Virus record (IMG/VR): IMGVR_UViG_3300037961_003161
Span: 1 to 61,892 of that record
DNA: 61,892 bases
Source of the DNA: a virus
Lineage: Duplodnaviria > Caudoviricetes
Strand: one strand, 5' to 3'
The notes under the pieces are model-generated. The model searched no databases and was not told where the DNA came from. It saw nothing but the letters and a program-made list of their open reading frames with translations. The position numbers were made by a program, and so were the translations under genes. Positions 1,659 through 51,920 of the stretch are shown piece after piece; position 1 is the stretch's first letter; each line of letters starts with the position of its first letter.

Positions 1659-2408
1659 TTACAGATAATCAACCACTTGCGAGTGTTTTACATTAGCTTT
1701 TAGCTTGTCAACAGCTTGCTTTTTTAACTGAGAAACTCTAACATAAGAGCTAATACCACCTATGTTTAAATACTTAGCTATTTGCTTAGCTGATTGTTTA
1801 TTACAGCCAAGTCCATAACTTAGTCTTATTACATGATACTCTTTGTCAGTTAAATATTTTAACATTAAAGTGTTTAACTGTTGAAATAATATTTCTTTCT
1901 TCATAGGATTTTCGCTTTCGTCTTCATATTGTGGTAGCATATCATCTTCAACTTCTTGATCTATACTTTGAAACATTGAGTTGTAAAACATAGCTTGCTT
2001 TTCAGGATCATCTTCAAAGCCTTTACGTATGTCATTTAACTTATGCTCAGGTATACGCATTGGTGATCTATTAGCATCAGTACCACGACGTATTGCACCG
2101 CGTACGCGTTTAGCTAAATAAGATTTTATAGTCTTTTCAGGATCGCTAGATTCTAGTATTTGTTTCCACTGTATTTTGTCAACAGCTTGTATTAAACCTA
2201 TTTTACCCATGCTCATTAAATCTTGTATATTCATTATTCCTGACGCTGAATCAGATGTAGAAAATTTACGAGCTATGTTTTCTACTAATGGTAGAAATTT
2301 TATTATTAGCTCGTCTCTAGTATACTCGTCCCAAAACTTACCTTCTGGTTGTGACGCTTTAATATCATCTTTATATCTTTTATAATTATAGTTATTATAG
2401 TTTTTCAT
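1659..2408 (-). CDS. Phage sigma70-family RNA polymerase sigma factor
   Basis: Region 2 (LPLVENIARKF...DLMSMGKIGLIQAVDK), region 3 (MRIPEH), region 4 (LTDKEYHVIRLSYGL...IAKYL...RVSQLKKQAVDKLK). Confidence 0.9.
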   Translation of the reverse strand: MKNYNNYNYKRYKDDIKASQPEGKFWDEYTRDELIIKFLPLVENIARKFSTSDSASGIMNIQDLMSMGKIGLIQAVDKIQWKQILESSDPEKTIKSYLAKRVRGAIRRGTDANRSPMRIPEHKLNDIRKGFEDDPEKQAMFYNSMFQSIDQEVEDDMLPQYEDESENPMKKEILFQQLNTLMLKYLTDKEYHVIRLSYGLGCNKQSAKQIAKYLNIGGISSYVRVSQLKKQAVDKLKANVKHSQVVDYL

Positions 2409-3025
2409 AATTGTTGATTGAGTAATTCTTTTTCTTTTTTAAGATCGTTGCACATGTGTCTATGTATTGTGCGACTAGATACGTTCAGAAGCTCAGAGAG
2501 TTTGCGTATCGTTATCTTTTGTTTATTATCATGTATATCAACCATAACAGCATATATGTCGTCAGAACAAACCCTAGGGCTCTGACCTACTAGCTGACCT
2601 ACAATAGATAATTTCATTTCTTTTGTTAACCCACTAAACGGTTTAAATATAACTTTGCGTAGTTTATTTTTAGGTGGACGATCAAGATCAGACATACTAA
2701 CTGCATATATGACTTTTTCTAGCAAACGATCTGATACGTTAAAACTTACAAAGCCATTTGGCTTGTGTACTATATATTCTGCTAGTTGTACAAAGTCATC
2801 TTGATCAAGACTAGGATTTAGATACCATAATACAAGTAAATGCCATTTAAGAGATTTATACGTAGTAATTTTTGCAGACGATCTAAATAACTCATAACAT
2901 TGATGAGTGCCGTTTTCAAAGTACATAAACTCTTTAGTGTCGATGTCAGGTTTATCTGTAGTAGGTAAACGCCTATATATCAACCGCTTATTATTTAGGT
3001 ATGTTAGGTTTCTTTCGTGTGACAT
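2405..3025 (-). CDS. DNA-binding protein with C-terminal helix-turn-helix
   Basis: ITIRKLSELLNVSSRTIHRHM HTH; start codon lies inside a dyad element. Confidence 0.7.
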   Translation of the reverse strand: MSHERNLTYLNNKRLIYRRLPTTDKPDIDTKEFMYFENGTHQCYELFRSSAKITTYKSLKWHLLVLWYLNPSLDQDDFVQLAEYIVHKPNGFVSFNVSDRLLEKVIYAVSMSDLDRPPKNKLRKVIFKPFSGLTKEMKLSIVGQLVGQSPRVCSDDIYAVMVDIHDNKQKITIRKLSELLNVSSRTIHRHMCNDLKKEKELLNQQL

Positions 3026-3063
3026 TAGCCTGTTATTATTTATATATTAGGGGCTGTTGTCAC
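3019..3063. repeat. Dyad element copy 1, GTGACA-N33-TGTCAC
   Basis: GTGACATTAGCC...GGCTGTTGTCAC with AT-rich core; homologous to 9845 and 10572. Confidence 0.8.
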
Positions 3064-4701: not shown

Positions 4702-5307
4702 TTAGTGAAATATTAGTCCTACTTTATTTGTTTTATTAAACCACTTTGTGGCCATTAAGTCAATATTAGAAGCATCAGTGTAACCAGCAGATATAAGCTC
4801 GTTATGGCTATGAAATATTCTGGTGTGTCTATCTTTATCTTCATTTATTAAATGTTTTTGTTTACCTGAATCGCTAAATATAACGTCGTAGTTAGCTGGC
4901 AGTGTCACACTTTTTAGCATTTCTACACAGTTAGTATAGCTGTAAAACCGTACGCTTGGGTTGTGTATAGCAACGGCAAGCCACTTGTCGAGATAAGCTC
5001 GAGAATAGTAGTCGCCGCTGTCATGAACCCTTACGTAATCAGGTTTCTTTTTAGCTATTTCGTGATTCATTTTATTAACAAAGTCATCTGTTTTACTGAG
5101 TTGGTATCGCTTCTCGAACGCTGGTTGTACATTTGACCATATATAAGCACCTTTTTTAGCGTAACAAAACTTGACGCACGCATCAGCAAACGGGCATGTC
5201 AACTTACCCGATGCTGATTTGTACGCCGGAATACCAAAATTAAATACTCGTAAACCTAGCGACTTGCTAGTCTTTTTTAACTTGGAGTTCTGTGTTAATA
5301 AATTCAT
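4702..5307 (-). CDS. GP88-like radical-SAM-related protein
   Basis: N-terminal NSKL.K, TCPFADACVKFCYA Cys cluster, VRVHDSGDYY, FYSYT. Confidence 0.75.
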   Translation of the reverse strand: MNLLTQNSKLKKTSKSLGLRVFNFGIPAYKSASGKLTCPFADACVKFCYAKKGAYIWSNVQPAFEKRYQLSKTDDFVNKMNHEIAKKKPDYVRVHDSGDYYSRAYLDKWLAVAIHNPSVRFYSYTNCVEMLKSVTLPANYDVIFSDSGKQKHLINEDKDRHTRIFHSHNELISAGYTDASNIDLMATKWFNKTNKVGLIFH

Positions 5308-5540
5308 TTTTCTTCTATTAAGAATTTAGTGCCAAACGCCCAGTCTTCAAACTTAAGAGTATGCAAAGGCGTGTCTGTAAAAGATACAAAGTCTCTGACT
5401 TGAGACACTGTTAAGCGTGACCATAGTTCATTATAGTATAATGACTTTTTAATAGACTCAATAGTAGCGGGATAGTCTTTTGCGTTATTTTCTAGTTTGT
5501 CTCTGTATTCTGGTTTTATACTGTTATACAATGTCTTCAT
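5304..5540 (-). CDS. Hypothetical protein
   Basis: ORF with ATGA overlap to next gene. Confidence 0.65.
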   Translation of the reverse strand: MKTLYNSIKPEYRDKLENNAKDYPATIESIKKSLYYNELWSRLTVSQVRDFVSFTDTPLHTLKFEDWAFGTKFLIEEK

Positions 5541-5541
5541 A

Positions 5542-5922
5542 TTAGTCTTGGTTTAATTGGTTATTATCTTCATCTGGACACTCAGCTTCAGCAAACAACT
5601 CTTCAACAACGTTGTATATTTCTTGGCCTAAGTCGTACGCATTGTCAAAACTAAAGGACTCAATAGCTATTCTGTTATCGTAGTCGATATGAAAGTCGTA
5701 GCTGTAGTTGTCAGTATCATCAAAATCAAACTGACCTACACCTTCTTCAATAGCATCACGTAGCTCATCGAACTGTAACGGCGTAAGCTTTGGCTTGTTT
5801 AAGTCTGCTAGTTGTTTTTTAAGTGTATCGATTTGACCTCGATACGCGTTTTGCTCTTGTGTTTTAGTGTCAAGAGCTGCTTGCAAAGCTTCTATCTTTG
5901 CTTCTAATTCTGTTTTAGTCAT
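5542..5922 (-). CDS. Hypothetical protein, coiled-coil N-terminus and acidic C-terminus
   Basis: ORF directly downstream of an early promoter. Confidence 0.7.
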   Translation of the reverse strand: MTKTELEAKIEALQAALDTKTQEQNAYRGQIDTLKKQLADLNKPKLTPLQFDELRDAIEEGVGQFDFDDTDNYSYDFHIDYDNRIAIESFSFDNAYDLGQEIYNVVEELFAEAECPDEDNNQLNQD

Positions 5923-5946
5923 AATGGTTTAATTTAATTTGGTTTA

Positions 5947-5981
5947 TAATAATATCTATTAGTAATTGTTTTTAATTCGTG
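5947..5981 (-). promoter_or_regulatory. Early promoter copy (CACGAA-N18-AGATATTA)
   Basis: Bipartite motif with 18-nt spacer shared by 7 sites. Confidence 0.7.
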
Positions 5982-6121
5982 TTGGCGTAAAACGTTGCGT
6001 ACACCTTAGCACCTTTAACCTCTTTAATAAGTATTTGCTTATCAATAGGTTTTTGTTCTAATTTAATTTGTGCTTCTGACCTATACTTAGGATTTTTGCT
6101 GTTTAATTTTCTTTTTTTCAT
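5972..6121 (-). CDS. Hypothetical 49-aa basic protein
   Basis: Manual translation MKKRKLNSKNPKYRSEAQ...FYANTN; TAATG coupling. Confidence 0.65.
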   Translation of the reverse strand: MKKRKLNSKNPKYRSEAQIKLEQKPIDKQILIKEVKGAKVYATFYANTN

Positions 6122-6336
6122 TAGTCTTCTAAATAATGGAATTTATGTAATTGTTCTACTACATGACCGAAAGCTTCTTTGTAGTCCATGTAGAACTCAT
6201 CGCTATCATTATCGTCAAGTAGTTCATATAAAGCATCGTCTATAGTCTTTAATGCTCGTTCGTATACTTCGTCTATAACATCTTCTAGTCTAACTAGCTT
6301 ACCGTTAAATCTTGTGTCTTTGTAAAATGCGCTCAT
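6121..6336 (-). CDS. Hypothetical acidic protein
   Basis: Coupled ORF. Confidence 0.65.
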   Translation of the reverse strand: MSAFYKDTRFNGKLVRLEDVIDEVYERALKTIDDALYELLDDNDSDEFYMDYKEAFGHVVEQLHKFHYLED

Positions 6337-6842
6337 GATAAATTGTATCTATGTCCGTTAACTATTACTTGTACTTCATCGCCAAATGGTAACCTGTTAC
6401 TTGGCTGGTTGTTATAATCTCTTACGTATGCTTCACGCAAGCAGTCCATGACGTAATCACTCATTACATACGTAGTTTTTTGATAGTAGTTCTTGATAAT
6501 AAACTTAGCTAAGTATATTATACGCTCTTCCCAACTGTGAATAAGTATACGTTCTTTACCTGTCATACCTGATTCGTATACTACTGGTTTAGTTTTATTA
6601 ATTTGATAAGAACTTGATAAGCCTTCGGTAACATTACGCACATAACCTGTTTCATACGTAGCAAAACGTATAGGTTTAGGTTGTAGTGTTTGCCATACCT
6701 GGCTGATTGGTAATTCATATACTGTTGTACCGTTTTTACGTTGACGTAACGTAGAGACATTTTTGATACCTAGTATCTTAAAAATAGTCATTGCCTCGCG
6801 AGCTGATTTAATTTCTGTTGATAAGTAATCCATATTAGTCAA
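6333..6842 (-). CDS. Hypothetical protein
   Basis: 169-aa coupled ORF. Confidence 0.7.
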   Translation of the reverse strand: MTNMDYLSTEIKSAREAMTIFKILGIKNVSTLRQRKNGTTVYELPISQVWQTLQPKPIRFATYETGYVRNVTEGLSSSYQINKTKPVVYESGMTGKERILIHSWEERIIYLAKFIIKNYYQKTTYVMSDYVMDCLREAYVRDYNNQPSNRLPFGDEVQVIVNGHRYNLS

Positions 6843-7161
6843 ATATATCTAGTTTAGTTATTAATTCTTTTGTGTATTTAGCTACAAGCTTTTGTTTGTA
6901 GTTCATAGCTAATTCTAGTTCAAATTTTTTCTTCATAGCATAAGGCTCAACGTAAGACTTGTGATCACTTTTATCTTCAGGTTTTGCATTTTTATACTGA
7001 TTGTAATGAGTAATATAATCATAAAAGTTTTGACTCGTACCTACATATTTATTTATTTCTTGATAAATATCAAATATTTCTTGTGCTTTTTCTTCTAAGT
7101 AATTGTCAGCTTTACGCTGTAATTGCTTTTCTATTTCATTAGTGTCTTTCATAATATTCAA
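6835..7161 (-). CDS. Hypothetical protein
   Basis: Coupled ORF. Confidence 0.65.
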   Translation of the reverse strand: MNIMKDTNEIEKQLQRKADNYLEEKAQEIFDIYQEINKYVGTSQNFYDYITHYNQYKNAKPEDKSDHKSYVEPYAMKKKFELELAMNYKQKLVAKYTKELITKLDIFD

Positions 7162-7336
7162 TTTTATTTAAGTTAATTCTTGAGTCAGCGTGAGACATCC
7201 ACTCACAATCATCTAGTTTATGACCTTGATCTACCATAATATCTTCAAAGTCTTCTGTTTGTAGCTCTTTGTCAGTATCTATAATATACTGATATACTAA
7301 GCCGTCTTCAAAGTCTAATACTGTTAATGTATTCAT
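7139..7336 (-). CDS. Hypothetical acidic protein (start moved to MNTLT)
   Basis: AT-rich leader before ATG at 7336; the longer ORF would run into the structured RNA. Confidence 0.65.
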   Translation of the reverse strand: MNTLTVLDFEDGLVYQYIIDTDKELQTEDFEDIMVDQGHKLDDCEWMSHADSRINLNKIEYYERH

Positions 7337-7362
7337 AGTATTTAATTTAATAGTTAATAAAA

Positions 7363-7484
7363 ACGAGGTGGCCAAGTGAGTACACACAGTCAGGCTGGGG
7401 CCTCACCTGTTAGTTCCATTTTACCGTGCAAGATGACTACCAGCGAACACTGACTTGTCTACACGTCTCACGCGCCACTCTCGT
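7363..7484 (-). ncRNA. Putative rod-shaped structured RNA (~120 nt)
   Basis: Nested pairings ACGAG/CTCGT, GTGGC/GCCAC, GTGAG/CTCAC, AGTCAG/CTGACT, GCTGG/CCAGC in a GC-rich intergenic gap; strand inferred from context. Confidence 0.55.
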
Positions 7485-7493
7485 ATGCTATTG

Positions 7494-7652
7494 TGCCCAA
7501 GGGTGGAGTCGAACCACCAATTATCCACGTTGCTCTGCACACGCAACAAGGCTCTATTTTTGTTCTGTTCCAAAGAGGTCCACTAAATCGCTCTATCCCC
7601 CTGAAGAACTTCCCACATTACCATAGATTTACTGTTCACCTTGTACTTGGGC
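7494..7652 (-). ncRNA. tRNA-like RNA (159 nt) with ~85-nt insertion at the D-loop position
   Basis: Acceptor GCCCAAG/CTTGGGC+A, U8-A9, perfect T arm GGTGG-TTCGACT-CCACC, CAAGG/CCTTG stem, GTTGC/GCAAC hairpin. Confidence 0.7.
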
Positions 7653-7658
7653 TATATT

Positions 7659-7874
7659 TTATCTAAGACATGTACCGTAACCTTTACGTCTACTTGCCTT
7701 GTAAATAGCTGCAGATACTGACTGCGACACTATTTGTATTGTGTTACCTGTCTTGTGGTTAGTAATCGGAGCTGATGCTACACGCTCTACACCACTACAG
7801 CTTACACACGTTTTGTACCCGTATTTTTGTCTTACTGGGTGTACGGGCTCACCACATCTACAATAATTTGCCAT
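7659..7874 (-). CDS. DksA/TraR-like C4 zinc-finger protein
   Basis: CRCGEPVHPVR...KTCVSC. Confidence 0.55.
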   Translation of the reverse strand: MANYCRCGEPVHPVRQKYGYKTCVSCSGVERVASAPITNHKTGNTIQIVSQSVSAAIYKASRRKGYGTCLR

Positions 7875-7894
7875 AGTTAATAAGCTTTTGTCAT

Positions 7895-7929
7895 ATATAA
7901 TATCTGACGGTGGTCGTTTTTTATTTGTG
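7895..7929 (-). promoter_or_regulatory. Early promoter copy (CACAAA-N18-AGATATTATA)
   Basis: Bipartite motif, 18-nt spacer. Confidence 0.8.
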
Positions 7930-7988
7930 ATGGTGCCACCACTCGAAAAACATGTATAGCAAAACTGCTACAAATATTAGTATAGTAG

Positions 7989-8063
7989 TTAGCACTCGTC
8001 TTGTCTTTTTATAGCGCAGAATAAATACCATACGCTAGTTAATACTAAAGCCCACTCAAACAT
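7989..8063 (-). CDS. 24-aa hydrophobic microprotein
   Basis: MFEWALVLTSVWYLFCAIKRQDEC; TAATG coupling to the upstream ORF. Confidence 0.45.
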   Translation of the reverse strand: MFEWALVLTSVWYLFCAIKRQDEC

Positions 8064-8173
8064 TATCTAAATAAGTTAATTGCTATTAGTGATATAATAC
8101 ATAAGAACCCTAAGTACATTACTATATGTTCTACAACTTCAAAGAAGTCTGGTTTGTTACGGTATGCTTTCAT
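8063..8173 (-). CDS. 36-aa single-pass membrane microprotein
   Basis: MKAYRNKPDFFEVVEHIVMYLGFLCIISLIAINLFR. Confidence 0.5.
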   Translation of the reverse strand: MKAYRNKPDFFEVVEHIVMYLGFLCIISLIAINLFR

Positions 8174-8177
8174 AATA

Positions 8178-8291
8178 TTATTTTAAAGTCATGGTTAATA
8201 ATTCAAACTCATCTCTAGTAATTAAACCTTCTAGCAAAGCTATATAGTATTTAGTTACGTTTCTACCTGTTATTTTGTTAGTTACAATCAT
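8178..8291 (-). CDS. 37-aa hypothetical protein
   Basis: MIVTNKITGRNVTKYYIALLEGLITRDEFELLTMTLK; fills the gap exactly. Confidence 0.55.
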   Translation of the reverse strand: MIVTNKITGRNVTKYYIALLEGLITRDEFELLTMTLK

Positions 8292-8293
8292 AG

Positions 8294-8527
8294 TTAATCT
8301 CCTAGTTCTATTAATTGGTTAATATAATCTTTTCTGTACTGCGCGTTATGTGGTGCGTTCTCGTTCCAGAATATACATCTGTCACTTGTTTTAGCAAACA
8401 TTGCTTTAAGCTCATCTTGTATAAACTGATAGTGAGTTCTGCCTTGTTGCCACGCTCTGTGGTCATCACTCATGTTGTGAAAGTGGTCGTGTACTTGTAT
8501 TTCCTGTGCTAATTCTTCTCTTGACAT
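8294..8527 (-). CDS. Hypothetical protein
   Basis: HD.F..MSDD.R.W..G motif. Confidence 0.7.
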   Translation of the reverse strand: MSREELAQEIQVHDHFHNMSDDHRAWQQGRTHYQFIQDELKAMFAKTSDRCIFWNENAPHNAQYRKDYINQLIELGD

Positions 8528-8528
8528 A

Positions 8529-8618
8529 TTAGTATTTTTTACCGTTAATAATTCTGTGTGAGTTTACTCTTTGTTGTCTCACTTGTCTTTTTACTTTAAT
8601 AGTTCTAAATGTTGACAT
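8529..8618 (-). CDS. 29-aa basic microprotein
   Basis: MSTFRTIKVKRQVRQQRVNSHRIINGKKY; fills the gap exactly. Confidence 0.5.
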   Translation of the reverse strand: MSTFRTIKVKRQVRQQRVNSHRIINGKKY

Positions 8619-8621
8619 ATC

Positions 8622-8825
8622 TTACTTATTTATTCTGTTATATAATTCTTCTATTACAAAGGCAAACATTTCTTCTTTCTCATCAAAGAATTTATTGTCT
8701 GACTCTTCATAGTCTCCGTACTCGTACATGTAATCTACTAGTACTTCATCTATTTTATCTATTATAGTATCGACTGTTTCATCTACTACTTTATTTATAA
8801 TTTTCTGAGGTGTTAATTTTGACAT
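8622..8825 (-). CDS. Hypothetical acidic protein
   Basis: Packed ORF. Confidence 0.65.
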   Translation of the reverse strand: MSKLTPQKIINKVVDETVDTIIDKIDEVLVDYMYEYGDYEESDNKFFDEKEEMFAFVIEELYNRINK

Positions 8826-8829
8826 AGTA

Positions 8830-9054
8830 TTATCTTCTTTGAGTATAGTTTAAATCTTTATTTAGTGTGTGCAAGTCAAAGTTGTGAGATTTGAGTGCAT
8901 TGTAATTTATATAACAATAACCTTTGTGGTTAAACTGGTCAGACAGTGATATTTCTTCGTAATACTTAGGCAGTTGGTGTAACTGAAATGGTATATATTT
9001 AGTATTGTTGATAGTAATAATATTAGTTGACGAGTCGATTTTTAAAGTTCGCAT
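8830..9054 (-). CDS. Hypothetical protein
   Basis: ORF directly after an early promoter. Confidence 0.65.
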   Translation of the reverse strand: MRTLKIDSSTNIITINNTKYIPFQLHQLPKYYEEISLSDQFNHKGYCYINYNALKSHNFDLHTLNKDLNYTQRR

Positions 9055-9077
9055 AGTATATAATTTATTTGTTACAG

Positions 9078-9112
9078 TTATATTATCTGTAGGTGATTTA
9101 ATTTAATTTGTG
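9078..9112 (-). promoter_or_regulatory. Early promoter copy (CACAAA-N18-AGATAATATA)
   Basis: Bipartite motif, 18-nt spacer. Confidence 0.8.
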
Positions 9113-9436
9113 TTAGTATATTTCTTCTATTTGTAATTCAGAAGTAATACTGTTATTTGTTACATAGAAGCTCCACTCGTCTGTAAATTCTACTAATGGT
9201 ATAGATATTTTGTTACTTGACATTAGAGTATCGCCTTGGTAGTTAACACCGTAGAATTTGTAGTCACAAGATATACTTTCTACTTGAGGCAAAGAACCTA
9301 CATTTACTAAGTATATTTCTTCTGCCTGAGTATTAATTTTCAAGTGTGGATTAAGTGACGTTGGGTAATATACTTCCTCTTTAGTGCATGAGGTCATACC
9401 TAGTATGACACTCACACCTAATAATATTTTCTTCAT
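9113..9436 (-). CDS. Putative lipoprotein
   Basis: MKKILLGVSVILGMTSC signal peptide with lipobox. Confidence 0.7.
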   Translation of the reverse strand: MKKILLGVSVILGMTSCTKEEVYYPTSLNPHLKINTQAEEIYLVNVGSLPQVESISCDYKFYGVNYQGDTLMSSNKISIPLVEFTDEWSFYVTNNSITSELQIEEIY

Positions 9437-9438
9437 GA

Positions 9439-9678
9439 TTACTCAGTAATTTCAGATAAGTTACGAGCGAAGGCAGGCACCGCATTACTATTTGTATAGT
9501 TACCATATTGTTGGAAGCAAGGCATTGACTCAAATCTTTCTTGGAATGTAGAGTAGATTTCATCATGGTTATACTTGTAAGTTATACCTTTTTTGTTAGT
9601 AAAAGTGATTGTAGTATTAGTGCCAATTAGAGTTTTTCTAATAACAAATCTTTTAGTAGTTAAAGTGTTAGTTGACAT
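9439..9678 (-). CDS. Hypothetical early protein, paralog A
   Basis: Clearly homologous to 10102..10335 (TLTTKRFV.RK.LIG.NT.ITFTNKK...YGNYTNSN..P..AR). Confidence 0.8.
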   Translation of the reverse strand: MSTNTLTTKRFVIRKTLIGTNTTITFTNKKGITYKYNHDEIYSTFQERFESMPCFQQYGNYTNSNAVPAFARNLSEITE

Positions 9679-9716
9679 AGTATTTAATTTAAGTTAATTA
9701 TTTATTTTAGTTACAG

Positions 9717-9751
9717 TTTTAATATCTTTTAGTGAACTGTTTTATTTTGTG
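9717..9751 (-). promoter_or_regulatory. Early promoter copy (CACAAA-N18-AGATATTAAA)
   Basis: Bipartite motif, 18-nt spacer. Confidence 0.8.
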
Positions 9752-9844
9752 TAAAGTATATGTTTTGTTTAGTGAATAATTATAGTTGTAGAGTACTGCA
9801 CTATTTCTCTTTGTTCACAAGTACAATTATAATTAGTACAAAGT

Positions 9845-9890
9845 GTGACACAAGGTAGTTAAGTAAAGTATAGTAGTAGGCTCTTGTCAC
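9845..9890. repeat. Dyad element copy 2, GTGACA-N34-TGTCAC
   Basis: Same arms and AT-rich core as 3019 and 10572. Confidence 0.7.
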
Positions 9891-9964
9891 TATTTTTTGA
9901 CAGGTAATAGACCTTTTACTTTCATTACTTCATATTTTACTTTTAATGATTGAAATGTAGACAT
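9890..9964 (-). CDS. 24-aa basic microprotein
   Basis: MSTFQSLKVKYEVMKVKGLLPVKK; directly after an early promoter; shares MSTF...KVK with 8529..8618. Confidence 0.5.
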   Translation of the reverse strand: MSTFQSLKVKYEVMKVKGLLPVKK

Positions 9965-9989
9965 AGTATTATATTTTATTTGGTTACAG

Positions 9990-10024
9990 TTTTAATATCT
10001 GTAGGTGGACTAAATGAATTTGTG
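9990..10024 (-). promoter_or_regulatory. Early promoter copy (CACAAA-N18-AGATATTAAA)
   Basis: Bipartite motif, 18-nt spacer. Confidence 0.8.
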
Positions 10025-10026
10025 TT

Positions 10027-10077
10027 GGTGGCGAGTGCTATACACGTCGTGCTATACACGCCTTCGGCGTTGCCGCC
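10027..10077. repeat. GC-rich element with 12-bp direct repeat and hairpin
   Basis: GTGCTATACACG at 10035 and 10049; ACGCC-TTC-GGCGT hairpin at 10058-10070. Confidence 0.6.
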
Positions 10078-10101
10078 TCAGCGCGTTGCATTTAGTAGAG
10101 A

Positions 10102-10335
10102 TTATTTAGTCTCTACTTGGTGCTCTCTTGCCCATGTTGGTAAGTTGTTACTGTTAGTATAGTTACCGTACTTGTGCCAGCACTCCATGTTATTTAGTCT
10201 TTCTTGATTGACAGAGTATACTGCGTCGTGGTCGTAAGTATAAGTTTCATTTTTCTTGTTAGTGAATGTAATGATAGTGTTGTTACCTATTAGTGACTTT
10301 CTCATTACAAATCTTTTAGTAGTTAATGTTGACAT
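10102..10335 (-). CDS. Hypothetical early protein, paralog B
   Basis: Homologous to 9439..9678. Confidence 0.8.
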   Translation of the reverse strand: MSTLTTKRFVMRKSLIGNNTIITFTNKKNETYTYDHDAVYSVNQERLNNMECWHKYGNYTNSNNLPTWAREHQVETK

Positions 10336-10367
10336 GTTATTAAAATTTAATTAGTTATTGTTTACAT

Positions 10368-10402
10368 TTATATTATCTGTTGTAAGACTTATTAAGTTTG
10401 TG
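10368..10402 (-). promoter_or_regulatory. Early promoter copy (CACAAA-N18-AGATAATATA)
   Basis: Bipartite motif, 18-nt spacer. Confidence 0.8.
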
Positions 10403-10435
10403 TGTTACAGTAGTTACTTAATAAATAACTTACAA

Positions 10436-10470
10436 ATATAATATCTGAAAACTTTCGAGGTAAATTTGTG
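10436..10470 (-). promoter_or_regulatory. Early promoter copy (CACAAA-N18-AGATATTATA)
   Basis: Bipartite motif, 18-nt spacer; first of the tandem pair at the strand switch. Confidence 0.8.
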
Positions 10471-10571
10471 TAAAAGGGCCCCGTGGGGCTAAATAAATTG
10501 ATTTTTGTAACGTGCTGGCTATCAGGTAGTTAGGGGGCTACACTATAACCCTATATTTATAACGCTAAATA

Positions 10572-10616
10572 GTGACATTAGCCTATTAAGATTATATAAT
10601 AACAAGCTATTGTCAC
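10572..10616. repeat. Dyad element copy 3, GTGACA-N33-TGTCAC
   Basis: Left arm GTGACATTAGCC identical to copy 1. Confidence 0.8.
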
Positions 10617-10640
10617 ACTTTTAATATACTTTCGATGCGA

Positions 10641-10651
10641 GTAATAATATA
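10641..10651 (+). promoter_or_regulatory. Putative late promoter box GTAATAATATA
   Basis: Identical to box at 13093; at head of plus-strand arm, 3 nt before ATG. Confidence 0.6.
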
Positions 10652-10654
10652 CTC

Positions 10655-11017
10655 ATGGCATATATACAGAAAAATAATCCTTTTCCTATCACTGCTTGTG
10701 GTAGACGTAGAGCTGGTGGTATTGGCCGTGGTTTTGAGATGGACGAGCCTAGCAGCTTTAAAAAGCTACGTAAAACTACTAAAGGTAAAGGCCGTCATTT
10801 TTTATCTGCAAAAGAAGGTGCAGGTATGACTGCTGCCGGTAGAGCCGCATATAATAGAGAAACAGGTGGTAACTTAAAAGCACCTCAACCTGGCGGTGGT
10901 AAACGTAAAAGATCATATTGTGCTAGATCTGCCGGTCAAATGAAAATGCACAATATAAATTGCAAAAAAACACCTGAAAAAAGAATATGCGCAGCAAGAC
11001 GCAGATGGAAGTGCTAA
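10655..11017 (+). CDS. Basic protein (DUF6321-like)
   Basis: GMTAAGRAAYNRETGGNLKAP...KRKRSYCARS...RRRWKC. Confidence 0.75.
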   Translation: MAYIQKNNPFPITACGRRRAGGIGRGFEMDEPSSFKKLRKTTKGKGRHFLSAKEGAGMTAAGRAAYNRETGGNLKAPQPGGGKRKRSYCARSAGQMKMHNINCKKTPEKRICAARRRWKC

Positions 11018-11029
11018 TAAAACAAAGAC

Positions 11030-11278
11030 ATGGCTTTTAAATTAAAAAACGAAGAAATAAAAAAAATAGTAGGTCAATTAAAAAACTCTGCTACAATGCA
11101 TGCTAAACAAGCTAAAAAGCTAGAAAGTGGTATGAAACTAAAATCACCTATGAAAGGTAAGATTAGCGAGCCCTGCAAAAGAGCTGCAAAACGTAAATTT
11201 AAAGTATGGCCTTCGGCTTATGCTTCTGGTTGGGGCGTAAGATGTACACGTAATCCTAGAAAATATTTAAAAAGATAA
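11030..11278 (+). CDS. Small basic protein
   Basis: MAFKLK leader, SPMK, KFKVWPSAYASGW motif. Confidence 0.75.
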   Translation: MAFKLKNEEIKKIVGQLKNSATMHAKQAKKLESGMKLKSPMKGKISEPCKRAAKRKFKVWPSAYASGWGVRCTRNPRKYLKR

Positions 11279-11826
11279 TGTTTGAAGACTTTGACATAAA
11301 AAAGTATTTAGACAAAAAGCCGCCAAGTGATAATTCGTTTACTACGATGCAAGAAATAAAGCAGCTTAACAAAATTCCTATTAATGTTAAGTTTGTAAAA
11401 GAAAAAGATGATATTAATGCATCGTTTAAAAAGCTTATAGACGAAAAAAAGCTAGATGTGCCAAAAAACATGATCGATAATCTTATAAAAGATTCTGCCC
11501 CGATCATAATGAAAATAAAAAAACATCACAATAGGCCAAGACCTAAAGTTTTAGCTAAAAAATTAAATATTAAATTTGATGATAAAGAGCTAGATTCAAT
11601 GAAAACGCCGTCATATCCATCAGGGCACTCTGCTCAAGGCGTAATGATAGCTGAAATATTATCTGATATGCATCCAAAACACGCTAAAGCGTTTAGAAAA
11701 ATAGGTAAAGACATATCTTATAGTAGAAACGTAGCTCACGCGCACTACAAATCAGACAGTAAATTCGGCGAACAGCTAGGAAAAGACATGTATAAGCACT
11801 TAAAAAGCAAAAAAAATGAAAGTTAA
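11278..11826 (+). CDS. PAP2/haloperoxidase-superfamily acid phosphatase
   Basis: K....RPRP, PSYPSGH, SR.....HY.SD motifs. Confidence 0.85.
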   Translation: MFEDFDIKKYLDKKPPSDNSFTTMQEIKQLNKIPINVKFVKEKDDINASFKKLIDEKKLDVPKNMIDNLIKDSAPIIMKIKKHHNRPRPKVLAKKLNIKFDDKELDSMKTPSYPSGHSAQGVMIAEILSDMHPKHAKAFRKIGKDISYSRNVAHAHYKSDSKFGEQLGKDMYKHLKSKKNES

Positions 11827-12094
11827 AAACTCTACATTCACAGGTTCGCCAAATAAAAAGAAAATGGGTGAGTTTAAGCACTCAGACGCGCCTGATGCTA
11901 AAGGTAAATTTAAGAGTTTATCAGCTTCTGCACTAGCTAGCTGGCTAATTAAGTCAAGAAAAGGTAATTTATCGCGAATTATTAGTAGTTTAAACCAACA
12001 AGTGGTTTTTAACCGCAAAAAAAATCCTAGTTACGCAGCAAAAATGCGCAAAACTATGGATATTGTACGTAAAAGACTAGGTAAAAAGAAATAA
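11816..12094 (+). CDS. Small basic protein
   Basis: SPNKKK; HSDAPDAKGKF. Confidence 0.7.
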   Translation: MKVKNSTFTGSPNKKKMGEFKHSDAPDAKGKFKSLSASALASWLIKSRKGNLSRIISSLNQQVVFNRKKNPSYAAKMRKTMDIVRKRLGKKK

Positions 12095-42823: not shown

Positions 42824-45800
42824 ATGTTTGAACTTAACGGTGATGTTTTAACAGTAGAAGATATACAAGCTGCAGCTGATAGCTTAAACATGTCTTATGA
42901 TGACGCATTTGCTAAGCTAACAAAGCAAGGTTTAATACAACCTACGTCTACAAATAATATGGATCTTGATACGGATCAACAGCCTAAAAAAACAGTAAAG
43001 CTTTGGGGTGGTTTAGTGCCTATAGAGGTTGATGAAGAAAAAGTAGATCCAGATGACTTACCAGCTTACAAACAAATAATTAATGCTTTTACAGGGGCAC
43101 CGGAAAGAGCTTTTAATAAATTTGAAAACTTTAGAGTAGCACTTGCTGATCCAATACAAGACATGTTTGGTGATGAATATGCTACATATTATTTAAAATC
43201 AACAGATTTAGACAAGTCTATACCTTGGATTGCTAATATGATGAAGTTTGACTTTGGTGATTACACGGCCGCAGACCTTGTTGATCCTCAAACAAAAGAA
43301 AGAATTAAATTTAACCAAAAAGCTTACGATGAAAAAGGTGTTGACGCTCCAGAGAATAAAAGGTTTTTTGAGCTTCTTAAAATGCATCGAGAAGGAGGTT
43401 TTGAAAGCGTAATAGCGTTAGCTCCTAATGAAACTTATGAAGAAGCTACTAGAACTTTCTCTGAAGAACTTCAGTTTCAAAAAGGAATTATTGATGAAAG
43501 AGTAAAAAACTTTAAGCCTATAAAAGATCCAAACGTTACAGGTTTTACTGACGCTATGAAAAAAGGTGAGCTTGACGACATGGTTTCTACAGGTTTAAGC
43601 TTTGTAACAGACATGACTATAGATGTTGTTGCAGCTATAGCCACTAGAGGTATTTCTATGGCTGGGACTATGTTTGGTATGGGTTGGAATATGTTTAATG
43701 ATGAAAAGTCAAAAGCTCTTTATGGTGAAGATGATCCTGATAGAGTAAAAAAACTTATAGAAAATAACGAAGAAGAACTTGCTATTCCCGCTACTTTAAG
43801 CGCTCTTGGTTTTGCTTTAGAAAGAATTGGTATGAAGCAGGTTGTAGGCGCTATAATGAAAAGAGCGGCTACTATGTCTGTGCCTGCTGTAATGTTAAAG
43901 TCTGGTAGTGTTGAAGGTGGTACAGAATATATGCAAGGCTTAATAGAAGAGTTTAATAGACAGTTAGGCTCTCAAGGAAACGACAAAGACGTAGAAAAAG
44001 CTACTGAAAAAACTATAGAGTTTGCTACTTCTGACCGAGCTTTAGATAATTTGTTTGCTGGTATTATTGGTGGTAGTGGTTTAGCTGGCGGTAGCGCTAC
44101 AGTTCAAGCGGCTTTTAGAGCAGACGAAACTAGTAATCAGTTTGTAAACGAACAATTAAAAAATTTAAAATACCTTCAAGAAGCTGAGTTTAGAGCTACT
44201 TCAAGAAGAAAGAAAAAACAATTCCGAGAAGCTATAAATCAAACTACAAACGACTTAGTATATTTTTTAAAGAAAAATAGAGATAAAACTGAATACTTAA
44301 GTAAAGAACAGTCAGAATCCTTAGAAAACTTAATAGGTGAAAAAAGAAAAGCAACTAAAGAGTTAAAAGATTTAAGAAAGCTATTTAAAAAAGGTATAAT
44401 AAGCAAAGAAGCCTATGACCAAGCTGTTCTTGATAAGAGACAAGAGGTTTTAGATTTTGACGCTAAAATGCAAGAAATAAAGAACGATGCTAATATGAAG
44501 CTCGTTATGCAAAATTTAGACGGTGGCGGAAAGTTAGTTAAAGATATTAAAAACATAAATCAAAAAGTATACAAAACTGAAGCTGAGTTTTTTAAAGCTA
44601 TGTTAAATGAATATTTAGCGATGGGTAAAACCGTAAAAGACTTTGAAGCAGACACTAAAGGATTTAGTATTCCTGGTATAAAAATTGGTAACACCATGTT
44701 GATCAATGCTGAAGAAGCTGCTAGAACAAATAAATTTGGTGTTGGTGTACATGAAGTAGCTCACATGGCGCTAAAAGCTAAAATACAAACTAAAGACGGT
44801 ACTGGTAATTTAAGTGTTGATGGCGAGCGAATAGTAAAACAGTTTATAGAAGATCTTAGCTCTAAGGAAAAAGAATACATAGAAGATCAGCTTGAGAGTG
44901 GTAAATACAAAGTAAATGCAGATGGCACTGCTAAACAGTTTAAAGAGTATGGAGAAGAATATTTAGCTTTTTATGCTCAGGGGGCTAGAGAAGGTAAATT
45001 TACTAAAAACGCTATACAAAAAGCTGGTAACAATATAGCTCAAATATTTAGAACTGAAACAGAGTTTGAAAGCTTTAATTTTGAAAACGCTGATCAAACT
45101 AGAGCTTTTTTAAATGCCTTAGTTGAAGATTCTAAAGAAGGTATATATAGACAAGAGTTTGTTGAAATGGCTAGAGAAGGAGCTACTATAGAGGACTCTA
45201 GTGTTAAAAAGTCTATGACTGCTAAGGAAAAAGCTACAGTTGAAAAAAATATAAATAAACTTGGAAAAGAAGGTTTGCTTGGTGAAAACTTTGTTGAACA
45301 AGCTGAAAAGCTTGGTAAAGGCATGGGCAAAAAACTGTTTGAAGCAGAGTTTGACGATATATACAAGAGAATACAAAATGAAGGTTATCTTGATAAATTA
45401 ATAGCGGCTCAATACAAAGCAAAAACAGTACCTAGAAACTTTGTTAAGAAAGTGTACTCAGAACTAACTTCGCATGCTAAGAATTTTAATCCAGAAATAA
45501 ATGACAGTTATTTTATTTGGCTAAACTCACAAATAGGAAATAAAGCAACGCAAGTATATAACAGAGAATATGAGGTTGATCAAACAACCGCTGGTAGAGC
45601 TAGAAACATAGGCGAGACAACACAAGAAGGCGAAATTAAAGTACAAGTCGCTGCAGATACAGATACTGCCTTAAAAGCGCTAGAAACAGAAGATTTATCT
45701 ATAGTGGGTCAAACTAAAAAAGAAGCTCAAGAAACTAGAAGCAAAGTTTCTAAGTTTAGAAAGCAGCTTGGTTTTGAAACTGGTGGTGAGTTTTATAATA

Positions 45801-48800
45801 GAGTTTTACAGTCTGCTAAAAAAAGCTTGTTGCTAGCTTATAATAAAACAAAAAACATAACAGATAAGTCAGAGCGAGCTGTAGCTATACGTGAACTTAT
45901 ACGTAAAGAGTATTTTACTAAAGGTCTTACCAGTGATTTATTCAAGCCGTTAAAGAATTTTTTAGGAACAGCACAATACCTCAACAATTTAGTAGAATAT
46001 AAAGAGGCTTTTATTAACGCTATGTCTACAGCTGATCTTGTTCAAATGGAACGTAAAGTCGCTGAGCACGAAAGAGTGTTTACTATATTTGACAAAAAGC
46101 TTACTAAAATAGAAGAAGTACAAGACGCTGTAAATAGAGACTTACTGCCTCCTGATGCAATTAACGCTATAAAAAAAGGTCAAGCAGTAAACCTTTACAA
46201 AAAGCGTATGCCTACAGACTCTGAAATCGTAGCGTTTGCAAATCAACCCGCCATTAATCCTGTAACAGGTCAAAGATCTGGTTTAAAAGGTACTAGAAAA
46301 GATGGTTTTGCTAAAGCTATGGCTAACAGCTTGTTGCTTGATGCTGTTATGCAGGTTAGGCAAAGCGCTGAAGTTGTTGAAGCCTTACAAGACGATGCTG
46401 TTGCGCTAGGTGATGAAGCTACACTAGCAGGTAAAATAGGTAGAGAGGTTGATGTTAAGTTTAGTAGAGAGGCTAAAGAAATTGTTGAAGCTACTAAACC
46501 CATAACTAAAACTATGGGTGCTAATCAAATACGAAAAGCAGGTATTGCCATTGACGAAATAGTAAGAACTATAGAAAAAGAAGGCGTAGACAACTCTGTT
46601 GTAAGCATGTTTGAAGATATTAAGTCTTTAATACAACAAGGATTATCTGTTCAAGAAGTTGCTGAAATAGCTTGGAATCGTAACGGTTATTTATTTGAAG
46701 ATGCTTCTAAATATGGTGTTGAAGGCAGCTTATTAACAGGCGTTTTTGACAAAAAACACTTAGCTCAAATACTAGCTAATGCTAAATCAATAACTGAAGC
46801 TCAAATAAAACAAATAGGATTTATCGATTCTGTTAATTTCTTACAAAAACTAAAAAGCCCTAATGCTGTAATCGACTGGCTAAAAACATATAGTAAATCA
46901 CTTAGAACAGCTAAAGTTATATACAACGGACAAACTATTACTACTAACGAACAAGTTCACGACTTGTTAATAGCTCCTTTAGGTATAGAAGGCTTTAGCG
47001 TTAGAAAAACAGGAAGAGGTAACACTAAAATAGTTTACAACGGTAAAGATATAAATACTTACAAGAAGATAATTGAAATAAAACAAGATGCTAGAGGATC
47101 TTATAACACTATATCTCAAGAAGCTAAATCTGCCATAAAAGCAGTTGTTGATATTGTTAAGTCAGATAAAAGCAAAGAAATTAAAAAGTCTTTAATTAAA
47201 CTTATGGGCGTTGACCAGGTTGGCACATTAAGAAAAATGGCAAAGCCTGGTATAATGTTTTGGAATTTTAAAGGTGAAACAATATTAGATCACAGGCCTA
47301 CTATAAACGACATTACTAAAAAAATATACGAAACTATAAATAATCCTACAAGCCAAGCCGTGCAAGAGCTTGAGAGTTATTTAAACAATACTTACGTAAA
47401 TTTAATACCTAAATCTTTAGACACTGAAATTACAAAAGCAGGCTTTAAGAATAAAGGTGGTATGGAGATTATGTCTAATTTTACGCTTAAAAACTTAATA
47501 GCTGATGAAATTTATGACAACTTAAGTAACACAAGTGTTAATTTTACAAAAGAAAATAATAGTATACAAAAGTCTTTTCAGTTTGCAAGGTCTGCTAAAA
47601 AACCAACTAAAGGAATTAGTATTTTAGATTTTGATGATACGTTAGCTACAAGCAAGTCACTAGTAAAATTTACAAAGCCAGACGGTACAGAAGGTACTTT
47701 AACACCAGAGCAATACGCTGCAACTTATGAAGACTTAACAGACTTAGGTTATAAATTTGATTTCTCTGAGTTTAGCAAAGTTGTTGATGGTAAACCTGCG
47801 CCTTTGTTGAACAAAGCTAAAAAGTTAGCTGGTAAGTTTGGTACAGATAACATGTTTGTATTAACTGCTAGGCCTGCTGACTCAGCTCCTGCTATAAAAG
47901 CTTTTTTAGATCAAAACGGTTTGAATATACCTTTAAAAAATATAACTGGTTTAGGTAACTCAACAGCTGAAGCTAAAGCTTTGTGGGTTGCTGGTAAGGC
48001 TGCTGACGGTTATAATGACTTTTATTTTGCAGATGACGCGCTTAAAAATGTGCAAGCTGTAAAAAATATGCTAGATCAGTTTGACGTTAAATCAAAAGTT
48101 CAGCAAGCTAAAGTTAATTTTAGTAGAACAATGAACGACGAGTTTAATCAAATGCTTGAGCGTACTAAAGGCGTGCCGTTTGATGAGAGTTTTTCAAGAG
48201 CTAGAGCTTTAAAGCTTGGTAAAAATAAAGGTAAATTTCAAATATTTGTACCTCCTGCAGCTGATGATTTTGAAGGACTACTATATTACTTTGTAGGTAA
48301 AGGTGAGCAAGGAAATAAAGACTTAGAGTTTTTTAAGCAATCTGTAATAGATCCGTTTTCAAGAGCTTACACAGAGCTTGATCAGTCAAGGCAAACAATA
48401 ATAAATGATTGGGATAGATTAAGAAAAAATCATAAAGAAGTAACTAAAAAGCTAGGTGACATGATGCCTGCTAGTGAGTTTACTTTTGACAATGCTATTA
48501 GAGTTTATTTATACAATAAAGCTGGTCATACTGTGCCTGGTTTGTCAGAGCAAGAGGTTAGCAATATGGTTGAAAGAGTTGAGACAGATAAAGCGCTTTT
48601 AGCATTTGCAGAAAACTTACAGTCTATATTACAGCTAGATGATGTTTATGTAAAGCCAAACGAGTACTGGATAGCTGGATCTACCTCTGCTGACGTACAT
48701 GAGGTTTCAGAAAGAATACGTAGGGCTGAGTTTTTAGGCGAGTGGATTGAAAATAAAAACGAAATATTCAACGAGGCTAACTTAAATAAAATAGAGGCCA

Positions 48801-51576: not shown

Positions 51577-51920
51577 AAAAACTGTGTATAGCAAATTACT
51601 TGTACGTGCTAATTATGATATTAGTGTTTACAGTATCAACAGCTTTTGGCCAAGTAAAAGTAATACATTTTAACGCAGGTTGGAACGAAGCTAATGACGT
51701 TGAGTGGTTTGATAAATTATCAGACGCTGGTAAAAAAAGTTTAAGTATAGACGATACAGAAATACAAAAGAAATATGCTATTGCTATTGTACCTACTATC
51801 ATTGTGTTTGACGAAGGCGAAGAAGTAAAACGTTTTCAAGCAGACCTTAGTTTTAAAATGGTTGCTACTAGAGAAGAAATACAAGAGTATATTGACGAAT
51901 TAATTATAAGTAAATTTTAA
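51573..51920 (+). CDS. Exported thioredoxin-fold protein lacking CxxC
   Basis: Signal peptide; VIHFNAGWN; KY.I..VPTIIVF.EGEEVKRF. Confidence 0.75.
   Translation: MKKLCIANYLYVLIMILVFTVSTAFGQVKVIHFNAGWNEANDVEWFDKLSDAGKKSLSIDDTEIQKKYAIAIVPTIIVFDEGEEVKRFQADLSFKMVATREEIQEYIDELIISKF

Follow-up and report, generated by a model that had tools for sequence, protein, structure and literature searches.

Bacteriophages that encode a sigma factor usually let the host sigma act first and their own later. In SPO1 and phiEco32 the phage sigmas (gp28 and gp36, respectively) serve middle and late genes while the early genes use host-type promoters and, more generally, phage sigmas (SPO1, phiEco32, T4) usually act on replication or structural genes. 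In the Bacteroidota, the crAss-like Cellulophaga phage phi14:2 has canonical middle promoters (TTG-N20-TAnnTTTGTA); the available part of the preprint describing this phage has these promoters read by host polymerase, and finds no common motif for the early transcripts made by gp66 (bioRxiv 10.1101/2020.03.07.982082). Here we describe the IMG/VR virus record IMGVR_UViG_3300037961_003161 (Caudoviricetes), the whole of which (61.9 kb, estimated 95% complete) is referred to as the window, and in particular seven copies of a two-box motif on its minus strand. These sites are very probably promoters of a class specific to a clade of uncultured marine flavobacterial podoviruses, and this promoter class is new for phages of the Bacteroidota.

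The motif CACRAA-N18-AGATAWTA has seven exact matches in the window, on the minus strand only and within 5950-10470, with none on the plus strand; in 100 dinucleotide shuffles the chance expectation is 0.01 and seven matches are never reached. The original prediction, made from the letters of the sequence, had reported seven minus-strand bipartite sites with a fixed spacing, all directed into an arm of small genes. Both statements are correct: the distance between the boxes is 18 nucleotides (nt) in all seven, all seven point into the small-gene arm, and the coordinates differ by about 3 nt from the approximate starts first given. A 40-nt weight matrix, trained on 26 sites of related phages with the window excluded, returns exactly these seven sites at 15.4-40.5 bits, the remainder of the window scoring at most 12 on either strand and the best of 20 shuffles 8.1. 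In an unguided repeat search they likewise emerge as family D1 (seven copies, 54 nt), the largest of the window's repeat families and its sole multi-copy non-coding motif. Six of the sites have an ATG 28-59 nt downstream; the seventh (10470) forms a tandem with the site at 10402, lying 68 nt upstream of it. In order along the arm, with open reading frame abbreviated to ORF and amino acids to aa, the probable promoters are:

10439 to 10470, minus strand: promoter site 1, first of the tandem pair heading the small-gene arm; CACAAA-N18-AGATATTA, 18.8 bits, predicted start about 10433.

10371 to 10402, minus strand: promoter site 2; CACAAA-N18-AGATAATA, 32.4 bits, predicted start about 10365; target ORF 10102-10335 (77 aa), with its ATG 35 nt downstream.

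9993 to 10024, minus strand: promoter site 3; 15.4 bits, predicted start about 9987; target a 24-codon ORF beginning at 9964, 28 nt downstream.

9720 to 9751, minus strand: promoter site 4; 18.4 bits, predicted start about 9714; target ORF 9439-9678 (79 aa), paralogous to the gene that follows site 2 (repeat family D7).

9081 to 9112, minus strand: promoter site 5; 27.3 bits, predicted start about 9075; immediately 3' of the stop codon of a lipoprotein-like ORF (9113-9436) and upstream of ORF 8830-9054 (74 aa).

7898 to 7929, minus strand: promoter site 6; 40.5 bits, predicted start about 7892; target ORF 7659-7874 (71 aa, Cys-rich).

5950 to 5981, minus strand: promoter site 7, the CACGAA variant; 28.9 bits, predicted start about 5944; overlaps the final codons of ORF 5972-6121, with ORF 5542-5922 (126 aa) next downstream.

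Site 6 is closest to the family consensus, contains AAAAACGA in its spacer and has an identical 32-mer in the relative G001, while orthologues of site 7 are kept ahead of the same gene in four relatives (G001, G003, G004 and G005). Directly upstream of site 1, on the same strand, a GC-rich hairpin followed by TTTT (10476-10489, minus strand) would stop transcripts arriving from an inverted-repeat region described below. A single metatranscriptome run (6% of sampled words) yielded four contigs of 162-217 nt with no RNA ends; one covers the site at 9081-9112, and could be DNA.

Conservation among relatives defines the motif more closely. Over 33 aligned sites the wider consensus reads YACAAA-nn-AAAWACGA-N8-RGATAATA-TAnaTG, with GATAWT present in all 33 family sites as well as in all seven of the window. 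The search of related phages that the original prediction had proposed shows the motif to be conserved: the degenerate form YACRAA-N18-RGATAWTA occurs in 8 of 23 related records, always on one strand, with 5, 5, 8 and 5 copies in the four relatives that are at least 90% complete, and its reversed control has no match across all 23 records. The same consensus recurs in 80 further loci around relatives of the phage sigma gene considered below. Describing the motif as two boxes separated by N18 is right as to distance and incomplete as to the spacer, which is not free: relatives keep the block AAAWACGA inside it, and in the window this block is clear only at sites 7929 and 5981. In one genome, G022 (L101 1808-1851, 3740-3783 and 5679-5722), boxes 2 and 3 are kept and CATGC/TGC replaces TACAAA; the third of these sites lies directly ahead of the sigma gene, with an ATG 5 nt after the motif. 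A DNA search of window positions 5000-12000 against the phage collection gave only a 100-nt match, to cyanophages. The consensus 15-mer was not found in the collection of papers searched, a literature search on Cellulophaga or Flavobacterium phage promoters yielded nothing on this motif, and the word 'promoter' is absent from the phi38:1 transcriptome paper (PMC5335546).

Two boxes at a fixed spacing, with A-11 and T-7 of a -10 hexamer, are found here as in promoters of the sigma-70 family, and we infer a sigma-70-type geometry from these letters. GATAAT would be the -10 hexamer (-12 to -7), (T)TACAAA would be the -35 element (about -37 to -32), and transcription would start 7 nt after the last T of GATAAT. 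The positions of start codons give this predicted start indirect but specific support. Among 170 distinct sites in 67 sigma-bearing loci, the next start codon follows the motif at exactly 5 nt in 14 cases, at 4 or 6 nt in none, at 3 nt in three and at 7 nt in five; the 14 sites precede several unrelated genes, including the sigma gene itself in four loci. An ATG placed 5 nt after the motif puts its A at the predicted +1, which implies leaderless messages. If the TAnnnnTG downstream were instead read as a host -7 box, the start would fall inside these 14 ORFs. That the sites are promoter-like, as originally proposed, is borne out by their intergenic position, their confinement to a single strand, their conservation in relatives and this spike of start codons at +1.

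Judged by their sequence, the sites are not host-type. A TTG at -33 (about 19-21 nt upstream of the -7 box) is present in none of the seven, and the -7 box TAnnTTTG is complete at 10470 alone (TATATTTG, with TTTA 20 nt upstream of it); the others have TAnnnnTG or less, a degenerate TAnnnnTG(TA) following the AGATAWTA box in six of the seven. Read with the predicted start, the box region is GATAATAT, in which the host -7 box is matched only at A-11 and T-7. The mismatch to the Bacteroidota consensus claimed at the outset therefore holds for the conserved boxes, which are unlike TTG(-33)/TAnnTTTG(-7), without being total, given the perfect box at 10470. For Flavobacterium psychrophilum, the available part of the relevant study reports six sigma motifs, namely three sigma-A variants of TAnnTTTG, a sigma-54 motif, TAnnTTGY and an extracytoplasmic function (ECF) motif with CGT (PMC9723704), and the site motif fits none of the six. 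A cultured relative without the sigma gene, elemoA, has two tandem canonical promoters (TTG-N19/20-TATATTTG) heading its small-gene arm. The 439 kb upstream of the 67 sigma genes hold 190 motif sites, and the canonical TTG-N18-21-TAnnTTTG is not enriched there (14 matches on the same strand versus 35 on the other); two of the 14 fall in the late region of the window, which was scanned whole and reversed.

The minus arm that the sites head extends from 10470 to position 1 and continues around at 61892-57076. It encodes the small ORFs, a 206-aa helix-turn-helix (HTH) protein, a 249-aa sigma factor, Erf, an exonuclease, ThyX, MazG, a resolvase and ribonucleotide reductase. The plus arm, from 10655, encodes GroEL, terminase, portal, capsid-like proteins and three giants (1778, 1607 and 2468 aa). 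A flavobacterial host is well supported by sequence comparison, because among the 87 records found with the terminase in the phage collection all those with a named host infect Flavobacterium, Cellulophaga, Tenacibaculum or Maribacter. Searches for a phage RNA polymerase (PDB sequences, a BLAST comparison with phi14:2, PHROGs, Pfam and motif scans) revealed none, and therefore the host core polymerase would have to carry out transcription. The 2468-aa giant was considered as a virion polymerase of the crAss-like or N4-like kind and is unlikely to be one: no PDB sequence matches it at an E value below 0.4, BLAST shows no similarity to phi14:2 gp65-72 or to the giant of MW202828 (a complete relative whose TerL is 64% identical), and T7-like motifs are absent. 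Its DFDDT is a HAD-type DxDxT motif. The sole DFDxD in a large ORF is the DFDDD of the 1607-aa protein, which is rich in Ser, Thr and Asn and has weak BACON/fn3-like Atlas leads (score 0.85); this occurrence we read as chance.

Which specificity subunit directs the host core enzyme to the sites is a separate question, for which two adjacent genes of the minus arm are of immediate interest:

1659 to 2408, minus strand: phage sigma-70-family factor, 249 aa; phrog_351, TIGR02937 at 60 bits (cut-off 42.9).

2405 to 3025, minus strand: 206-aa protein with a C-terminal helix-turn-helix (HTH_11, E 9e-5, below cut-off), possibly a co-factor or regulator; its stop overlaps the sigma start.

We tentatively favour, while rating it a little below an even chance and leaving the priming step aside, the reading that host RNA polymerase directed by the phage's own sigma reads the sites. 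As the original prediction stated, the sigma gene lies downstream of them on the same strand. It is present in all four complete relatives that have the motif, and MW202828 has neither sigma nor motif; motif and sigma thus occur together, in a pattern confounded by shared descent. No cultured phage was found to carry this sigma, the search giving three weak matches to gut phage contigs. Alignment with the sigma-A of a putative host (G024) sets YAVWWIRQSILQ in the host against SYLAKRVRGAIRR in the phage protein at region 2.4, and TRERVRQIK against SSYVRVSQLK at region 4.2. Because these aligned segments differ, the WW pair, the Q437-equivalent residue and the -35-contacting R/E/R are replaced in the phage sigma; taking residue numbering and roles (the positions reading -12 and -35) to be those of Escherichia coli sigma-70, the phage sigma should, by its sequence, read boxes different from those of host sigma-A. 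The view that the host housekeeping sigma is an unlikely reader, which the original prediction took, is accordingly reasonable but unproven, and its further claim, that a different factor has to act on the sites first, stands as a proposal.

With the phage sigma as reader, the sites would fire into the small-gene arm and, by read-through, would also serve the HTH-sigma pair, the recombination genes and the genes of nucleotide metabolism; the host core polymerase would do the transcription, with the 249-aa sigma most likely as its specificity subunit. The first round might come from weak use of the sites by the host sigma-A holoenzyme, site 10470 having a perfect -7 box, or from a protein brought in with the virion, and the sigma would later amplify its own arm. 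We infer both the identity of the reader and the priming step. The T7 A1 promoter has GATACT as its -10 hexamer. A fragment bearing that promoter is transcribed by Cellulophaga baltica polymerase, according to the available part of the preprint cited above (bioRxiv 10.1101/2020.03.07.982082), and by analogy weak use of the sites by host polymerase is plausible.

Several observations weigh against reading by the phage sigma. The promoters in question are all upstream of the sigma gene, which sits directly behind one in only 4 of 67 loci, so that placement of the motif for self-regulation of the gene was rejected as a general explanation; in the window, transcripts could reach the gene only from site 7, by reading through 3.5 kb, or from whatever the repeat at 3019-3063 may supply. 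The scan of the 439 kb upstream revealed no separate host-type promoter for it and, together with its downstream position, this leaves the start-up step unexplained. A set of 8 sequences had hinted at covariation between the region-4.2 helix and box 1 (SSSY changing to STAN in the one genome whose box is altered), which dissolved when tested among 67 sigmas: there are 28 helix variants, yet box 1 stays (T)TACAAA in nearly every group, and the xTAN variant of G022, where box 1 is TGCnnn, pairs with a normal TACAAA in other genomes. Region 2.4 and the GATAAT box are both near-invariant and hence uninformative in this respect. The sites precede small early-type genes and not the replication or structural genes on which phage sigmas usually act. 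Uniformity of the motif across sigmas that are 57-86% identical would also fit a conserved host reader, and the co-occurrence of sigma and motif may simply reflect common descent.

Some of these points lend themselves to a second reading, which we regard as doubtful without being negligible: unmodified host polymerase reads the sites at time zero, through sigma-A acting on an unusual architecture or through another host sigma or activator, and the phage sigma serves only the plus (late) arm. This would follow the usual order of phage transcription and suits sites that lie upstream of the sigma gene and ahead of small early-type genes, a motif that is near-constant while the phage sigma helix varies, and a plus arm with a conserved head element of its own. 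The TAnnnnTG(TA) after the box in six of the seven sites, together with TATATTTG at 10470, points the same way. Set against this are the poverty of the match to the host -7 box (A-11 and T-7 only, with the predicted start), the lack of TTG at -33 in all seven sites, the failure to fit any of the six motifs in the part of the F. psychrophilum study available (PMC9723704), and the plain canonical promoters that the sigma-less elemoA uses at the same place.

Bacterial genomes provide evidence on both sides of this second reading. A three-block pattern scan of 185,579 species genomes found 41 stretches, most of them short contigs that resemble phage DNA binned into metagenome-assembled genomes (MAGs). 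One 117-kb contig filed under a Flavobacteriaceae MAG (G027 contig C7; L117, L138) carries the sites twice, about 63 kb apart, and looks like a concatemer of a phage of this clade, not host DNA. Copies that agree perfectly with the phage consensus in each of the three blocks, and that favour a host reader, are found in the chromosomes of three small Flavobacteriaceae or Flavobacteriales genomes (L123 323-354; L125 and L135; G024:C2:141676-141707 and 160149-160180). The copy in G023 precedes a TerB-domain gene adjoining parAB and dapB, the copies in G024 precede two paralogues encoding small secreted proteins and lie in a repeat of 266 nt with 96% identity, and the copy in G025 precedes an orthologue of the latter genes. 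For one of these small proteins, a phage locus encodes a weak homologue (E 4e-5), and no relative of the phage sigma was found in G023, G024 or G025 with the phage sigma as query. On sequence grounds the motif is not a host regulon, because it occurs in 2 of 300 other sampled Flavobacteriaceae genomes compared with 3 for the reversed control, which is no enrichment. In the three genomes with chromosomal copies, each holding one or two, the two-box pattern has 4 matches compared with 2 for the control. The host-genome search suggested with the original prediction has in this way covered the 300 genomes and the three with copies, and no host regulon with the motif was found. The rare chromosomal copies look like exchanged cassettes or genes answering to infection.

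A third reading, which we consider improbable, has the sites read or primed by a virion-borne factor, either the packaged phage sigma or a domain of the largest giant docking on host core polymerase:

45227 to 45580, plus strand: sigma region-2-like domain, about aa 802-919 of the 2468-aa giant encoded at 42824-50230.

A virion factor would solve the start-up problem, and the gene for this giant stands among structural genes. Of the giants only aa 790-1250 of this one were folded; in both AlphaFold models, one of aa 790-1110 and one of aa 790-1250, a helical domain forms (predicted local distance difference test, pLDDT, 61-86), for which the best 24 rows (model 1) and the best 8 (model 2) among 48,161 PDB representatives are, by title, sigma factors or the sigma chains of initiation complexes. 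These matches have Z of 5-6.9 and root-mean-square deviations of 2.4-5.9 Å (at most 4.4 Å except in two rows) over 72-99 aligned residues, the best being ECF sigmas. The segment therefore resembles sigma region 2 in its modelled fold, a likeness of modest Z, below the level where the tool warns that helical matches may be common arrangements, and short of demonstrated homology. Pfam (E up to 10) and NCBIfam (E up to 1) give no match for the segment, nor does Foldseek at E<=0.001 for its model, and the 270 residues that follow (domain of model residues 191-396) have no sigma-4 match. Its distribution is patchy whereas the motif is near-invariant across these phages: the segment is detected in 6 of 22 TerL relatives, in 0 of 5 by profile and in 8 of 40 sigma-bearing records (5 of the 27 complete ones). 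The giant of G005 gives one borderline profile match (E 7e-4, probability 26%), and that of MW202828, a phage with a different early motif, has no such segment, as a virion-borne reader would lead one to expect. Of the sigma2-like segment at about 45.4 kb that the original prediction pointed out, the likeness in fold has held up; no sigma-4 partner turned up in the following 270 residues, and the segment is detected in few of the complete relatives.

The 2468-aa giant (42824-50230, plus strand) is a mosaic that combines an HExxH motif, the sigma region-2-like domain, the HAD-type DxDxT motif and, at the C-terminus, a Cys-rich tail that weakly matches DUF5763. Its counterpart in G005, of 3605 aa and also multidomain, has a weak LPD14 match and an AAA_33 kinase-like domain. 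The two giants share the C-terminal third only (residues 1626-2468, 53% identical), and the lone domain sits in a fast-evolving giant protein. The giants resemble polyvalent proteins, which the available part of a survey proposes to be injected with the DNA (PMC5512222); the word 'sigma' is absent from its main text. Presence of this giant in the virion is a candidate assignment only. A more specific form of the idea, by analogy with T4 gp55, is a long shot: the domain of the injected giant would act as a tethered minimal sigma on host core polymerase and open GATAAT at time zero, the free phage sigma taking over later, and, as part of the same long shot, the rare chromosomal copies would be switched on only by infection, as phage-derived cassettes or host sentinels. 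Finally, it is scarcely probable that the sites are not promoters at all, being instead binding sites of a phage regulator (for example, the 206-aa HTH protein) that overlap weak promoters, or signals unconnected with transcription: the contiguous conserved block of about 18 nt (tTTACAAAcTAAATACGA) does exceed the usual length of a -35 element and the start sites are predictions from sequence, but the motif is asymmetric, always in the sense direction and upstream of genes, no other promoter type is seen in these arms, and, unless transcription has a fixed start, there is little to explain why start codons peak at a single distance.

Further elements of the window and of one relative deserve brief mention. 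An inverted repeat with 13-nt arms, GTGACAWTAGCCT-N19-AGGCTAWTGTCAC, is present in two copies (10572-10616 and 3019-3063), the first heading the plus arm and the second overlapping the start codon of the 206-aa HTH gene ahead of sigma; it recurs in two relatives, ahead of the HTH gene in G003 and heading the arm in G021, and might serve the HTH protein as its operator or form an RNA hairpin across the start codon. GTGACA-N17-TATAAT was tried as a sigma-70-type promoter and rejected, the -10-like part not being kept in G005 or G021; it is the inverted repeat with its 13-nt arms that is retained. At the head of the plus arm (10530-10564, plus strand) lies a block, GGGCTACAC-TATAACCC-TATATTTATAA, common to G004, G005 and G021; in the window it reads TTA-N19-TATATTTA, each box one base short of the host consensus, and from its sequence it is a candidate promoter of the plus arm. 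The non-coding stretch 7492-7652 (minus strand) has a 7-bp acceptor-like stem (GCCCAAG/CTTGGGC) and a T-arm-like GGTGGTTCGACTCCACC, encloses about 100 extra bases and has a terminator-like hairpin downstream of it; neither ARAGORN nor Rfam gives a match in the window, and the fold energy of 7492-7652 is no better than that of shuffles (z 0.51). Within the 610-aa ORF 51920-53752, six copies of a 44-nt coding repeat (GGCTGTA...TTTAATTATAA...; 52430-53346, plus strand) form a repeated Cys-containing module in a late protein. MW202828.1 (L016), which encodes a 3859-aa giant protein, has at 43800-50000 at least eight copies of a perfect palindrome, GTGTCGTTAACGACAC, some 20-30 nt before the start codons of its early arm.

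The clade is common in aquatic metagenomes, with at least 600 terminase relatives in IMG/VR, and a sharply defined promoter class with a predicted start offers a handle for annotating early genes throughout it. The same handle could serve phage-responsive reporters in marine Flavobacteriia. It also allows a test of whether a phage sigma can run the earliest genes, for which a start-up trick unlike those of known systems would be needed, and the giant would place a sigma-like domain in a probably injected protein.

Among described systems, phi14:2 shares with the window the podovirus gene order of GroEL, terminase, portal and giants, and the virion polymerase of N4 and gp66 of phi14:2 likewise serve an early arm with signals that are not host-type. 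The difference lies in the polymerase, none having been found here and no PDB sequence match to gp66 or N4 having been obtained; moreover, the sites form no hairpin, unlike the hairpin promoters of N4. The Bacteroidota sigma-A promoters (phi14:2 middle promoters, the elemoA arm head and SM1-3 of F. psychrophilum, the last from the available part of PMC9723704) belong to the same host phylum and have the same overall two-box layout. A TAnnnnTG(TA) remnant after the box and the full -7 box at site 10470 recall them; the conserved boxes here, CACAAA and AGATAWTA with no TTG at -33, set the sites apart. Promoters of ECF sigmas carry AAC at -35 and CGT at -10. Many relatives read TACAAAC ... CGATAATA, a resemblance only, since in the window position 7 is C in one of the seven sites and the -10 box begins with A. 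T4 gp55 is a minimal sigma made up of a region-2-like domain alone, as the domain of the giant would be, and the fold matches include a chain of the T4 gp45-dependent activation complex (7d7d_F, Z 5.8); gp55 is late and free-standing, whereas the domain described here sits in a structural giant and is known from its modelled fold. With SPO1 gp28 and phiEco32 gp36 the window has in common a sigma-70-family factor of its own, a phage-specific two-box motif unlike the host consensus and the use of host core polymerase. It departs from them in that no host-type early promoter is seen and the motif itself heads the earliest-looking genes, together with the arm that encodes the sigma.

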